From Octopus vulgaris (lineage: Eukaryota), in contig OX597833.1 in NCBI GenBank assembly GCA_951406725.2, positions 29,636,001-29,700,000 on the forward strand: a stretch of 64,000 nt of DNA, in the 5' to 3' direction. The notes beneath the pieces were generated by a model that saw nothing but the letters and a program-made list of their open reading frames with translations, was not told the DNA's origin and searched no databases. The translations under genes were made by a program, and so were the position numbers. How positions within the stretch are numbered: the first letter of the stretch is position 1; every line of letters begins with the position of its first letter. Positions 19,452-25,669 of the stretch are shown here, piece after piece.

Positions 19452-19749
19452 ATCGTGACGCATATTTGCCATTTGAATATGGCTAACCCCTAAGGGTGGA
19501 TGCTACTGTAGTTTGTAGCCCCAGGAAGATATCTCCTCCAGCTGGCTATAGACACATTATCTGTGTCCTCTCAGTGTTTGTGAAGGGGAGTCATCCTCCC
19601 CGTCTTCAACTCATGATACACACGGACCTGAGTTTCAAGGTGTTTACTTTTCATCAGCGTGTGACAATCATGGTTGTCGACGAGAAGTCAGCTCCCTTCA
19701 CAAATACATATACTTTTTCTAGTGTCGATTGACACTGATATTGAAAAAG
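19452..19749 (-). repeat. Inverted copy of the ~350-nt HHR repeat (uninserted allele of the Tx1 target)
   Basis: Reverse complement matches 19978-20065 and 25395-25626 in sequence order; directly follows (TA)n. Confidence 0.9.
19613..19671 (-). ncRNA. Type I hammerhead ribozyme
   Basis: cacacg-CTGATGA-aaagt aaac acctt-GAAA-ctcagg-TC-cgtgtg; 6-bp stem I extended by atgat/atcat. Confidence 0.8.
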
Positions 19750-19777
19750 ATGGGGAGGATGAAGAGGATGAAGTTGA

Positions 19778-20065
19778 AGGATGACTCCCCTTCACAAATA
19801 CTGAGAGGATACAGATAGTGTGTCTATAGCCAGCTGGAGGAGATATCTTCCTGGGGCTACAAACTACAGTAGCATCCACCCTTAGGGGTTAGCCATATTC
19901 AAATGGCAAATAAGCGTCACGATGTGCTACTGCTACTGTTTATAACTCGCTCTGAGATTTATCATTGTTTGATTTCACTTTTTCAATATCAGCGACAGTG
20001 GACGCTGGAAAAAGTATAAGTATTTGTGAAGGAGATCTAATTCTCGCCGACAACTATGATTGTTA
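19778..20065 (+). repeat. Direct copy of the HHR repeat upstream of Tx1 (pLTR-like)
   Basis: 19778-19966 matches 25481-25669 with 3 mismatches in 189 nt; ends in the left target-site copy (20044-20065). Confidence 0.9.
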
Positions 20066-20286
20066 TTCGTCTAGGGACCCCTCTTTCATCTGCGTTTTGA
20101 GAATTTTGCTGCCTTTTTGTTGAGTGAGTTTGTATTTTTTGTTCGTCGTTGTTTGTGTTACTCGTGAATTGAACAGTTGTCCATTGTGTAACAGTAATTT
20201 TTGCCGTAAGGGGCAGAAAATTCTGTGTTTAAACATTGTCATTACCTTTAATTTTTTTGAAACATTTGTTCTCATAATTTTGAGAA

Positions 20287-21750: not shown

Positions 21751-24700
21751 ATGGCAAAGCTGGGTTGTGTGAATGTGCGTGGAATGGGGTCGAAATGGAA
21801 ACAAATTTGTTTTCTGAACGACCTCACGACACATGGAGTGGACGTAGCTATTGTAACCGAGTCCAAGATGAATGGGGCCCAAGCATTCTCGCCTCTTCTA
21901 AATGGTTTCGAGAAATTTATTTCTCCTAGCTGAGGAAGAGGAAGAGGCGTGGCAGTCCTTATCAGGAAGAGCTTGGACTTGCAGGTAAGTACTGTCTTTC
22001 TGGACCCAGAAGGCAGGCTGGTCGTTCTGGATGTGACCCACGTAAGTAAACAGTCCTTCAGGTTGGTAGCTGTCTACGCTCCGAATGAGTGTAGGCAGGC
22101 GGGTTTTTTTCGGAATCTGGAGCCCTTTTTAGCGACGTCGAAAACGGTAGTCTTAGTAGGGGACTTTAACACTGTCCTTGAAGCACGGGTCAACAGTGTT
22201 GGCTCAACCAATAGGAAGGGGAACCCTAGCCTCAAGGGTCTACTAGAGAGCTTTGATCTAGTGGACCGTTATCGACTGGATGAGCCGAGCGTTCCACAGT
22301 GGACGTGGAGTAACAACGACGGCTCACACAGATCGTATATAGATAGGATATTCGTTAAGAAAAGAGATAAGGATACGTTTAGTTGTCCACAGTTTCACAT
22401 TGTGCCTTACATGGATCACAAATTTGTGACTTGTAGGGTGCAATTAGATAAGTGCCATAGACAGGGACCGGGGTACTGGAAGCTGAACAAGTCTATTTTG
22501 AATTGTGAAGACTTCCATACCCGGATTAAGGTGTTAGTACAGAGGGCATTGTGTGGCACCATCATTAACAATAGATGGTGGCACTCCCTCAAAAAAGCCA
22601 TTCGTTCAGAGTCCATTAGATTTAGCAATCATCTAAGGTTAGATAGGTCTAGGATAGAGGACGATTTAGTTATGAATCTAAACGAGGCAATGGAAGCTGG
22701 CTCTGCATCCGGAGTGATGGCGGCAAGGACGGTATTGTACCGTCACCATAACTCCAAACACGAAGGTTGCAGAGTCAGAGCTAAGCTACGCGCTGGGAAA
22801 TGAGAAGGTATTAACGTTGCCGGATGGGCCCGTCGAGTGGAGAGTCAGAGAGGTAACAAAGCTTCAATCAAGTCTTTAAGTGACGAACAGGGACAAAAGA
22901 TCTATGGACAGGAGGAGATGCAAAAGTTTCTTCACCAGCATTTCGCCCGCGCATTCGGGGGTGGTGTGGCGCCAGAGCGGGGGAGGGCCTTAAAGGACTT
23001 CCTAGCTGGCGGACTGCAGCTCTCAGGGCGTGAGGTGGAGTGCTGTGAAGAAGCGATCACTCCCGCGGAGATAGAGGGGATACTGGCCGGATGCGCCGGG
23101 GAGAAGTCGCCGGGGTTGGATGGTCTGCCCTACGAGTTTTACCAAAGTATGCCAGACTTGTTCGGGGGAATATTGGCAGGCGTCTACACGAACTGGCAGC
23201 AGAATGGGAGAATTCCCAGTTCTGTAAGCTGGGGAGTGGTGATGCTAATCCAGAAAGACCCGAGCAAGGGGGATAACATTAGTAATTACAGGCCCATAAC
23301 TCTACTTAATGTACAGTTAAAGATTTTGGCCAAGGTGTTGGCAAAAAGGTTGACGATTGTCGTGGAGAAACTTGTAGGGAAAGCACAGACATGTGCAATT
23401 CCAGGCAGGTCGATCCAGGACAATCTTCACCTTATATGCTACACCTTAGATAGGGTGGGTAAATTAACCGGCAAGGACGGGGTAATGGTCCATTTAGACC
23501 AAAGTAAAGCGTTTGATAGGGTAGACCATAAGTACCTGGCGACGGTCCTCGAAGTGGCTGGACTGGGCCCTGAATTTCGCGGGTGGATCTCCGCTATGTA
23601 TAGCGGCATCAAGTCCACCGTCCAGATAAACGGTTACCTAACGGAACCGTTTTCGATCGAATGTTCAGTTCGTCAAGGGTGCCCCTTGTCACCACTTTTG
23701 TACGTGTTGGCTCTCGAGCCATTGCTGCGAAAGTTGGAGAGGCTGGGAAGTAACCCAGATGAGATCGGAGGTGGGAGGACGGTTACTGCTTATGCAGATG
23801 ACGTCACCCTCATCGTGTCCAATGAGGCCCAGCTACCTTGTGTAGAAGAGGCTATCAGAGGATACGAGGCGGTGACAGGAGCAAGGGTTAACAAGGACAA
23901 GTCGGTTGGCTTGCGCCTCGGCACCTGGAGGAGCAAGTCGATATCGTCCAGTGTCGTGGGACACTGGACGGATGGTCCTGTTAAGTTGCTAGGAGTTTGG
24001 TTTGGGTCAGACTCCCAAACGGAGAGGAATTGGAGTGAGGTGACGGGCAAGGTGGAGGCCATAGTACGGACCTGGTCCGGAAGGTTTCTGTCCTTGAAAG
24101 GAAGGGCGGAGGTGGTGCAGATGTTCATTGCATCTGTAATCACTTACCGCCTGACCGTTGTCCCTTGCCCTGATTCATGGCTTAGCAAGTTGGAACGAAT
24201 CCTTTTCCGCTTTTTGTGGAAGGGAGGAAAGCCACTTGTGAGGCACTCCGTTTGCTGCCAGGAACCGTTAAAGGGTGGGTTAGGAATGCCTTGGTTGATG
24301 ATGCGCAGGCATGCGTTGAGGCTGAAGCATCTCAGGCACCACCTGGAGGGTGATAAGGTGTGGAGTCCGCTGGCAGGGGAATTTTTCCCGAGACCGGCTT
24401 CCTTAGTGAATTTTAAACCCGGTCGCATCAAAAGACGGAATCTGACTTTATGGCAAAAGGAGTGCCGACAGGCACTCACGCTGATCCACAAGGCGGGCAA
24501 GGCCGGCTGCGGAAATACCACCTCGGTATTTTATAGCAGGCTGGTAGAGGCAAAGAACGACGACGTCCTAGGAGGGGCTCTGGGGTTTGACGAAGACCAG
24601 CTTACCAACCTGTTTAAAAAGACTTTCAGGACGGGGTATTTGGATAATTTCAAAGATCCCTGGCCTGGCAGTGTTATAGGAATGCTTTACCTGTTCGCGA

Positions 24701-25139
24701 GAAGTTATCGCGGCACGGAATTTCAGTGCCACTGACGTGTCCAAGATGCGGGTTGGACGATGAAACCGTCCAGCACGCTTTTGTACACTGTCGGAAGTTG
24801 TCAGACTTGATAAGTTACGCAGAACACGTGTTATCGCATCTGGGACGAGTACAGCTGTCGGCTGAGTCTATGATTAAGATGATACCGCCAACTGGACTCT
24901 CGAAGGAAGGTGAGGCATGTTTTCACTGCACGGTTGCAGTAGTAAAAGAATGCATGTGGCGTACAAGAATGGAAGGAGTCGCAATAGGATCCTTTGTCTC
25001 AGGCCCCGGCTTGCTCACTTACTTCAGATATCATCTGAAGAGCAAAATGGGGCTGGAAAAGAAGATCTTACCGCGAGGTGTGTATGAAAAAAGATGGAAG
25101 GAAGTGGCAAAAAAGGTGGGTGTCAGAAACCCAGCTTAA
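21751..25139 (+). pseudogene. Tx1 ORF2 (APE endonuclease, RT, C-terminal zinc finger) with 2 in-frame TGA stops and 1 frameshift
   Basis: APE: CVNVRG, VYAPN, VGDFN, YIDRI, MDH. RT: KSPGLDG, NYRPITLLN, DQSKAFDRVDH, RQGCPLSP, YADD. C-terminal CPRC...ETVQHAFVHC. Stops at 21931 and 22801; frameshift near 24650. Confidence 0.93.
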
Positions 25140-25394
25140 CTATGGATGGAGGGGAGGAAAGAAAAGCTGCGGGGCCTTATGGATTGCCGAGGTTTAAAAT
25201 ATCGGTAAGATCGCAAGTTAATGCAATGTTGTAATGTTCTATTGGTCATGCAAAGGACAATTTAAATACAAATTTTGTATAATGAATAATCCAAATGTTA
25301 TTGAAAATTTTTAATCAAACCACTTAACTGTTTTTTGTATGTATGTCCTGTATTGTCCTTCTATGTAATGATTTTATAATCGTAATAAAGAAAT

Positions 25395-25669
25395 TCGTCG
25401 ACAACCATGATTGTCATACGCTGATGAAAGGTAAACACCTTGAAACTCCGGTCCGTGTGTATCATGAGTTGAAGACAGGGAGGATGACTCCCCTTCACAA
25501 ATACTGAGAGGACACAGATAGTGTGTCTATAGCCAGCTGGAGGAGATATCTTCCTGGGGCTACAAACTACAGTAGCATCCACCCTTAGGGGTTAGCCATA
25601 TTCAAATGGCAAATATGCGTCACGATGTGTTACTGCTACTGTTTATAACTCGCTCTGAGATTTATCATT
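25395..25669 (+). repeat. Downstream direct copy of the HHR repeat (pLTR-like)
   Basis: Begins with the right target-site copy, then HHR, then the 189-nt block shared with 19778-19966; ends in (TA)n. Confidence 0.9.
25407..25465 (+). ncRNA. Type I hammerhead ribozyme, canonical core, predicted cleavage after C25453
   Basis: catacg-CTGATGA-aaggt aaac acctt-GAAA-ctccgg-TC-cgtgtg; 5-bp stem II; GUC triplet. Confidence 0.85.

Follow-up and report, generated by a model that had tools for sequence, protein, structure and literature searches.

Long interspersed nuclear elements (LINEs) of the Tx1 clade that insert in other transposons or in U2 small nuclear RNA (snRNA) genes are already known. The available text of one survey lists Tx1L in Tx1D, Tx1-Mar in Mariner-N4_AMi, Tx1-8_Crp and Tx1-4_AMi in long terminal repeat (LTR) elements, Tx1-9_AMi in Harbinger and Keno in U2 snRNA genes, and counts a family as target-specific when more than 20% of its flanks are alike (PMC4494074). 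Targeters of RNA polymerase III (Pol III) start sites are also known. The LTR elements Ty3 and Tj1, and TRE5-A and NLTR-A of the L1 group in Dictyostelium, are described as targeting Pol III genes; TFIIIB brings Ty3 to within 1-4 nt of the start, and TRE5-A, whose ORF1 protein binds TFIIIB subunits, inserts 40-54 bp upstream in the opposite orientation (PMC5911963). R2 in the 28S ribosomal DNA borrows its promoter from the target, and upstream target sequence on its RNA is proposed to anneal, forming the 5′ junction (PMC3774820). Among non-coding repeats, non-LTR retrozymes are described as tandem units of 170-400 nt with a type I hammerhead and a GC content below 45% (PMC7229834; 10.64898/2026.07.22.740005), Penelope-like insertions as having an inverted 5′ copy, a 30-40-bp tail at one end and microsatellite sites (10.1101/2021.04.23.441226), and newt satellite 2, a hammerhead satellite, provides a precedent for an snRNA-type promoter in such a repeat (PMC2220036). 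Here we analysed a window of 64,000 nt from the 2.8-Gb genome of Octopus vulgaris (OX597833.1, positions 29,636,001-29,700,000), in which a full-length L1/Tx1-type LINE lies within a hammerhead-bearing, retrozyme-type repeat.

We consider it probable that this LINE, having inserted independently many times at one site of the hammerhead repeat that is also the predicted start of an snRNA-type promoter, homes to start sites of RNA polymerase II (Pol II) and is transcribed from the promoter it lands behind. The flanks of its other copies were tabulated, a check named beforehand in a first-pass annotation of the window. In a genome search with the LINE 3′ end, the best 40 of 200 candidates were scored and the 30 loci returned were examined. 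Of the 22 closest 3′ ends, 19 run into the hammerhead repeat at one and the same base, one runs into the duplication and another LINE copy, and two lie elsewhere; the remaining eight loci are sisters with other targets. With 19/22 flanks of one kind, the family exceeds the 20% that marks a target-specific one, which is not what a chance insertion would give. At the 5′ end, 26 of 30 copies lie directly behind the host promoter segment and the duplication, two behind another LINE, one is rearranged and one is off-target. The recurrence of the same base across varied hosts indicates targeting, at one site and in one orientation across many host families and contigs.

The first-pass annotation had offered, as its other option, a 6.2-kb unit of LINE and repeat that moves as one. 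We compared host and LINE divergence in the 28 of 41 long loci that have both junctions in host repeats. The hosts of subfamily 1 were 82-99% alike and those of subfamily 2 about 65-93%, LINE end branches were about 1%, and LINE clades spanned host families; LINE and host showed no shared history of the kind that a composite would have. Near-identical LINEs thus sit in host families 65-96% alike, with duplications of about 14-20 nt that are host-specific on both sides, and this argues against the composite unit. Private variants are common to both copies of the duplication at L094 and L099, the 5′-truncated copy L096 joins directly behind its duplication, and a related family (family 3), 78% alike in the APE endonuclease domain, uses the same retrozyme site. 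Collectively, these results show repeated independent insertion and not a composite.

The locus contains the following features, given in window coordinates with the strand in parentheses.

19364..19451 (no strand): left (TA)n microsatellite, into which the host repeat is inserted; empty host copies likewise end in (TA)n.
19452..19749 (-): inverted host retrozyme-type repeat of subfamily A, ending at unit position 232.
19657-19651 (-): hammerhead core of the inverted copy, with one stem II mismatch.
19735..19739 (-): core ATCAG of the inverted copy, resembling that of a proximal sequence element (PSE), 58 nt before its empty site (from sequence and alignment).
19778..20043 (+): direct partial host unit, comprising unit positions 87-275 and a 77-nt promoter segment, without hammerhead.
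19988..19992 (+): ATCAG, a PSE-like core 58 nt before G20046, where transcription is predicted to start.
19993..20062 (+): segment of host subfamily B within the A-type host, with the crossover in 19957-19992.
20044..20062 (+): upstream (5′) copy of the duplicated 19-nt target, of B type.
20063..25394 (+): L1/Tx1-type LINE, full length, 5332 nt, without a poly(A) tail.
20287..21723 (+): open reading frame (ORF) 1 with a CCHC zinc knuckle, open.
21751..25139 (+): ORF2, with APE endonuclease, reverse transcriptase (RT) and zf-RVT; stops at 21931 and 22801 and a frameshift near 24650.
25384..25389 (+): AATAAA immediately before the LINE 3′ end.
25395..25413 (+): downstream (3′) copy of the duplicated target, of A type; its final 7 nt open the extended stem I on the 5′ side.
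25407..25465 (+): motif of a type I hammerhead ribozyme, with its core CTGATGA at 25421-25427 and self-cleavage predicted after C25453.
25395..25669 (+): direct host unit, positions 1-275, with a 43-nt 'tail' (25627-25669) found at one end of the insertion only.
25670..25735 (no strand): right (TA)n microsatellite.

The order of microsatellite, inverted repeat, direct partial repeat, LINE, hammerhead repeat and microsatellite read in the first-pass annotation was borne out, as were the empty target site preserved in the inverted copy and the position of the ribozyme right after the LINE's AATAAA. The three host-repeat pieces are 97-98% alike across their common part. Finer details were revised. 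The boundaries of the LINE, which begins with TTA at 20063 and ends at 25394, are fixed by an off-target copy (L106) with a clean 13-nt duplication; the flanking duplication is therefore not 22 nt with three mismatches but 19 nt with two, or 20 nt if an ambiguous T is counted. The top-strand break falls 7 nt before the hammerhead core, rather than 4 nt, and the bottom-strand nick 26 nt before it. Contigs of four sequencing runs cover parts of the LINE, the repeat and the empty form, and no piece among those listed bridges the junction of LINE and repeat.

The position of the site relative to promoter elements was determined by counting from +1, the purine of an RYCG motif at the start of the duplication. 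The core ATCAG lies at -58 to -60 in all 28 LINE-bearing hosts, at -57 to -59 in 20/20 U1 genes of the genome and at -57 to -61 in 17 of the 18 U2 genes that remained once two loci with a LINE tail in front were left out. With a matrix built from 12 distinct U1/U2 windows, ATCAG was the best match within 110 nt in 28/28 hosts, and at -58 in the unit. Filled sites carry the core in 26/26 cases and empty sites with an intact target in 26/35 (Fisher p = 0.004), a comparison made with slightly different patterns and, for the empty sites, in A-type repeats only. The 5′ ends of family 3 (n = 30) lie behind a PSE-like core in 18 cases, at +1 of U2 in four and behind another LINE in eight. The four U2 copies carry a 14-nt retrozyme-type leader that starts exactly at the predicted +1, which fits a donor RNA beginning there. 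Together, these positions suggest that the LINE site is the predicted start of the repeat's snRNA-type promoter.

Family-3 LINEs at U2 +1 with a 14-nt duplication and a retrozyme-type leader were observed as L164, L169, L172, L173, L236 and L243 (G000:C3:20.81-20.83 Mb; C23:43.31 Mb). The 5′ flanks of the family-3 relatives L178-L180 hold a diverged host with a PSE-like core and a different duplication, and have no blastn match to the window's repeat.

Sister subfamilies were sought by protein search, in which the best 150 of 21717 candidates were scored. Of 63 loci drawn from these and earlier matches, 13 were dropped for want of a duplication of at least 11 nt, eight were retrozyme sites, and 42 reduced to 22 independent targets. 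At sister targets Rfam detected no RNA family and ARAGORN no tRNA. The motif TATAWA starts at -32 to -26 in 9 of these 22 (8/16 for full-length copies and 1/6 for truncated ones), whereas 40 other 7-nt windows gave 0.3 on average and never more than 1; the interval from -32 to -26 was picked after the sequences were viewed. Six single-copy targets with unrelated duplications still have TATA at -27 to -31 (L223, L226, L287, L296, L298 and L308). Across retrozyme hosts and TATA-type sisters, the lineage keeps a fixed position relative to promoter elements at unrelated sequences, as promoter-tethered elements do. Several of their targets precede APE/RT ORFs of other LINEs, and a C2H2 zinc-finger exon lies downstream of one sampled member of a target cluster (38 of the 195 downstream ORFs found were scanned).

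Across these unrelated targets the endonuclease hardly changes. Unbroken sister copies are 87-95% identical in APE to subfamily 1, and the APE DNA of L218 is identical to that of seven copies with a different target. The hairpin loop of L1 sets endonuclease specificity. The segment aligned to it is unchanged between subfamily 1 and most TATA-type sisters. Because this region is the same in sisters with other targets, and because a family 78% alike in APE shares the site, it is doubtful that APE reads the sequence of this repeat. Of the first-pass proposal that the endonuclease targets the repeat, repeated targeted insertion thus stands and sequence reading by APE is in question. Midpoint rooting of the APE tree places the groups that target retrozymes at the base, with the TATA-type groups nested, a ladder that recombination could also give. 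From these data we place at about even chances a fuller history, in which the lineage would find Pol II starts within a few bases through the initiation machinery and not through DNA sequence, would have begun on the snRNA-type promoters of hammerhead retrozymes and moved on to U2 and later to the TATA promoters of other transposons and zinc-finger genes, with the endonuclease almost unchanged and former hosts recorded as 5′ leaders.

Further observations were made on the sisters. A very young subfamily (L211-L222, L275, L276, L283 and L300) has 1148-aa open ORF2s and forms head-to-tail arrays with a spacing of about 5277 nt (e.g. G000:C5:29.18-29.21 Mb and C9:59.21-59.25 Mb); no PSE, and in most cases no TATA box, lies at its main target. 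L131-L148 and L324 lie about 30 nt behind TATA-like boxes in clustered repeats (G000:C27:22.8-26.3 Mb; C2:14.65-14.72 Mb), with a 625-aa C2H2 zinc-finger exon 2.4 kb downstream of the one member scanned. L224-L227, L230, L271, L281, L286, L290, L306 and L311-L314 lie behind TATA boxes upstream of the APE-RT ORF of another LINE family, with a PHD-like match in three of four, which suggests that this second family uses the upstream TATA promoter. The 5′ leaders of L213, L218, L226, L227, L230, L271, L298 and L307 consist of stacked 10-20-nt pieces common to other targets or subfamilies, like a record of earlier hosts.

We next turn to the ribozyme, for which Rfam detected no hammerhead in the window. 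An alignment of 17 copies from several host families had 93% of cells paired, with 6 of 18 pairs changed on both sides, compared to 21-52% paired in slid-alignment controls. Related sequences without structure can beat a shuffle control, and the call was based on the slid control and the motif. Motif and covariation support a hammerhead whose self-cleavage is predicted. The first-pass annotation had suggested that self-cleavage could define the ends of the LINE RNA and might allow a circle. For the 5′ end this does not hold: the direct repeat upstream of the LINE begins only at unit position 87, past the hammerhead, so that no 5′ end can be made by self-cleavage at this locus, and since a complete ribozyme lies upstream of only one in 15 full-length copies of subfamily 1, cleavage is not the general source of the LINE 5′ end. 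Nor can a circle run from ribozyme to ribozyme here, the upstream partial repeat being without a hammerhead. A ribozyme-made 3′ end is possible; it is not needed, because sisters without a ribozyme, young copies with 1148-aa open frames included, end at the same base. Several downstream ribozymes have changes in the core or in stem II. In host subfamily B (3′ flanks of L107, L108 and L091) the stem III loop is the palindrome CTCGAG, with which a dimeric hammerhead is possible; the window's copy does not have it.

The host repeat is a tandem unit of 352 nt with 43% GC, non-coding (no ORF of 100 aa over the repeat) and abundant, with 1909 first-look candidates in the genome. In motif, unit length, GC content and lack of coding it agrees with the retrozyme features tested, and it has the inverted 5′ copy, one-end tail and microsatellite sites of Penelope-type insertions. 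We examined 29 further host loci, most of them LINE-free, and many of the LINE-free ones are already inverted-plus-direct within (TA)n. Ten empty host copies have one end at unit position 232 and the other at 275, leaving the same one-sided 43-nt tail; some copies end elsewhere. Since empty copies show the same layout, the outer inverted and direct architecture belongs to the host repeat and not to the LINE. It was likely made earlier, through Penelope-type mobilisation of the host repeat.

The copy in the window has a mixed ancestry. Its LINE matches the B-host alleles at 13 of 17 diagnostic sites, and the last 1000 nt of the element cluster with LINE copies from B hosts (99/92). In the 5′ flank B-type sequence starts at 19993, whereas A-type sequence makes up the upstream repeat, the inverted copy and the 3′ flank. 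These alleles would be most simply explained if a LINE from a B-host donor had retrotransposed into an A host and 53 nt or more of the donor's upstream sequence had taken the place of the target's own. Such a donor-type flank was seen in 1/13 copies tested. A second candidate, L103, was rejected, its flank matching its own 3′ repeat at 120/121 nt.

These results can be combined into a model of insertion at start sites. The LINE particle may be tethered to the initiation complex, or may cut DNA that the complex has opened, and would nick the template strand at -3 to +1. The first ~17 nt of the host would form the 5′ end of the LINE RNA, whose transcription may continue into the 3′ duplication; each subfamily is likely drawn to its own host because these few bases pair with the target. 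Cleavage of the read-through transcript by the downstream hammerhead, 59 nt beyond the end of the LINE, would be a by-product.

Several points weigh against homing to start sites. The transcription start is a prediction from promoter position. The matrix score of the A-type unit is modest, being reached somewhere by 193 of 2000 shuffles, so that the promoter argument rests on position, and the unequal patterns of the filled/empty comparison and the late choice of the TATA window count here as well. No strict TATA box lies at -32 to -26 in 13 of 22 sister targets, and only one of the six truncated copies has one. One subfamily-1 copy, L106, sits with no promoter seen inside a Gypsy-type pol fragment (the label is a reading of the translation; its surroundings had been tried as the start of a Penelope element, a candidate rejected on this ground). 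The donor-type 5′ flank of the window's copy reaches 53 nt upstream of the predicted start, beyond an RNA from +1, and requires either an RNA starting further upstream or later gene conversion, against a strict rule that the RNA always starts at +1. Finally, each subfamily mostly keeps to its own hosts, a choice that promoter position alone does not explain. This last behaviour is expected if insertion is directed by sequence, through an endonuclease preference and pairing of read-through RNA with the 14-20-nt target, the link to promoters then arising since only promoter-borne copies are transcribed and found subfamilies. Within a subfamily the targets do begin with the same 3-6 bases (ATCGCT for U2 and a host family, TCT for the youngest clade), the off-target and truncated copies lack promoters, and known Tx1 families are described as endonuclease-directed in the available text of the survey (PMC4494074). 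However, single-copy targets with unrelated duplications still have their TATA at -27 to -31, target sequences without the promoter core are under-used and the APE loop region is unchanged across targets, and we regard direction by sequence as unlikely.

It is improbable, in our estimate, that the LINE depends on the ribozyme and targets the 5′ arm of the hammerhead since self-cleavage makes its RNA ends or a circle. Most copies do have an intact hammerhead 59 nt past the LINE end, and the donor-type 5′ flank of the copy in the window would fit an RNA that an upstream hammerhead sets free and that is then joined through annealing, in the way proposed for R2 (PMC3774820); yet the rarity of complete upstream ribozymes (1/15), the altered cores and stems II downstream and the young, ribozyme-free sisters with open ORF2s and the same 3′ end all speak against such dependence. 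A composite of LINE and retrozyme, moved as a 6.2-kb unit by Penelope machinery, is very improbable as the origin of these loci. The outer ends of filled loci follow the host's pattern, L107 and L108 have no upstream host sequence, and at L117:6960-7420 (reverse strand of the locus) an inverted LINE tail plus repeat, identical at 374/385 nt to the adjacent copy, lies across (GATA)n through local duplication or co-mobilisation, so that LINE and host may possibly move together on occasion. Against this, hosts differ by up to 35% and LINE end branches by about 1% with clades spanning host families, the private variants of L094 and L099 stand in both duplications, the truncated L096 joins directly behind its duplication, and the off-target copy is clean-ended. 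The chance that the arrangement reflects a random insertion into an abundant repeat (1909 candidates), or an assembly artefact, is negligible: no long read was seen across the window, but the same base and orientation recur at dozens of loci on many contigs, which refutes it at the level of the family. Homing to Pol II start sites therefore remains our preferred explanation.

The LINE itself was called a full Tx1 in the first-pass annotation. It is full length; its coding capacity is not intact, ORF2 being broken at 21931, 22801 and near 24650, and an unbroken ORF2 is found in copy L092. Elements of the Tx1 clade have an ORF1 with a CCHC knuckle and an ORF2 with APE, RT and a C-terminal zinc motif. 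The same two-ORF layout is seen here (zf-CCHC in ORF1; APE, RT and zf-RVT in ORF2). The closest solved relative of ORF2 is human L1 ORF2p (E 4e-64), the best named relative is an Argonauta hians protein (59% identical), and no named Tx1 reference was among the matches of the protein searches; the Tx1 label thus draws on domain layout and should be taken as provisional. A scan of metagenomes for relatives of the LINE found none. The family has the hallmarks of target-primed insertion, namely duplications and 5′ truncations.

Elsewhere in the window, a mariner-type transposase fragment (PF01359) lies at 57991-58728 (+), and other LINE fragments with RT, PHD-like and zf-RVT matches lie at 15262-16952 (+), 43922-45211 (-) and 51400-52503 (-). 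The segments 16661-17237 and 31551-32127 form a 577-nt inverted repeat pair, 80% alike, the first arm of which overlaps a LINE fragment.

Full-text searches, whose scope did not extend to Repbase, most subscription papers or the supplements of PMC4494074, found no LINE that targets hammerhead repeats or Pol II starts. An annotation of Octopus repeats reports 13 recently active L1-Tx1 families, and the words 'target', 'hammerhead' and 'ribozyme' do not occur in its main text (PMC13282606). Hammerhead retrozymes are an added target class for site-specific LINEs, and their predicted promoter suggests how these retrozymes are transcribed. The sisters form a natural series in which target choice shifts while the endonuclease hardly does, which makes an old question, that of how APE-type LINEs acquire and change targets, directly testable. 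If promoter tethering is true, the lineage would be a base-precise Pol II counterpart of Ty3 and TRE5-A, it would map start sites in an under-annotated genome, and it would have placed LINEs between promoter and transcript in zinc-finger gene clusters.

Compared to the described systems, the host repeat resembles non-LTR retrozymes, the pseudo-LTRs of Penelope-like elements and newt satellite 2 in its tandem non-coding unit, type I hammerhead, inverted 5′ copy, one-sided tail, (TA)n sites and snRNA-type promoter core. The LINE resembles the Tx1 elements that target transposons in being an APE-type LINE that is site-specific in another mobile element. It differs from them in its hammerhead-repeat target, in the predicted promoter start at which it lies, and in having near-identical sisters at unrelated sequences in the same promoter-relative position. 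Like Keno, a related family here (family 3) inserts in U2 genes. Keno inserts inside the U2 gene, whereas the insertions here lie at U2 +1 and leave a whole U2 downstream. With R2 the LINE would share a promoter borrowed from the target, and the window's 5′ flank resembles the annealing model of R2; R2, however, encodes its own ribozyme, like that of hepatitis delta virus, at its 5′ end, whereas here the ribozyme is the host's and lies 3′ of the LINE. As in Ty3 and TRE5-A, insertion takes a specific position relative to the promoter. Those elements target Pol III genes, whereas the lineage described here, as read from its sequence, lies in the sense direction at Pol II starts predicted for promoters of two types.

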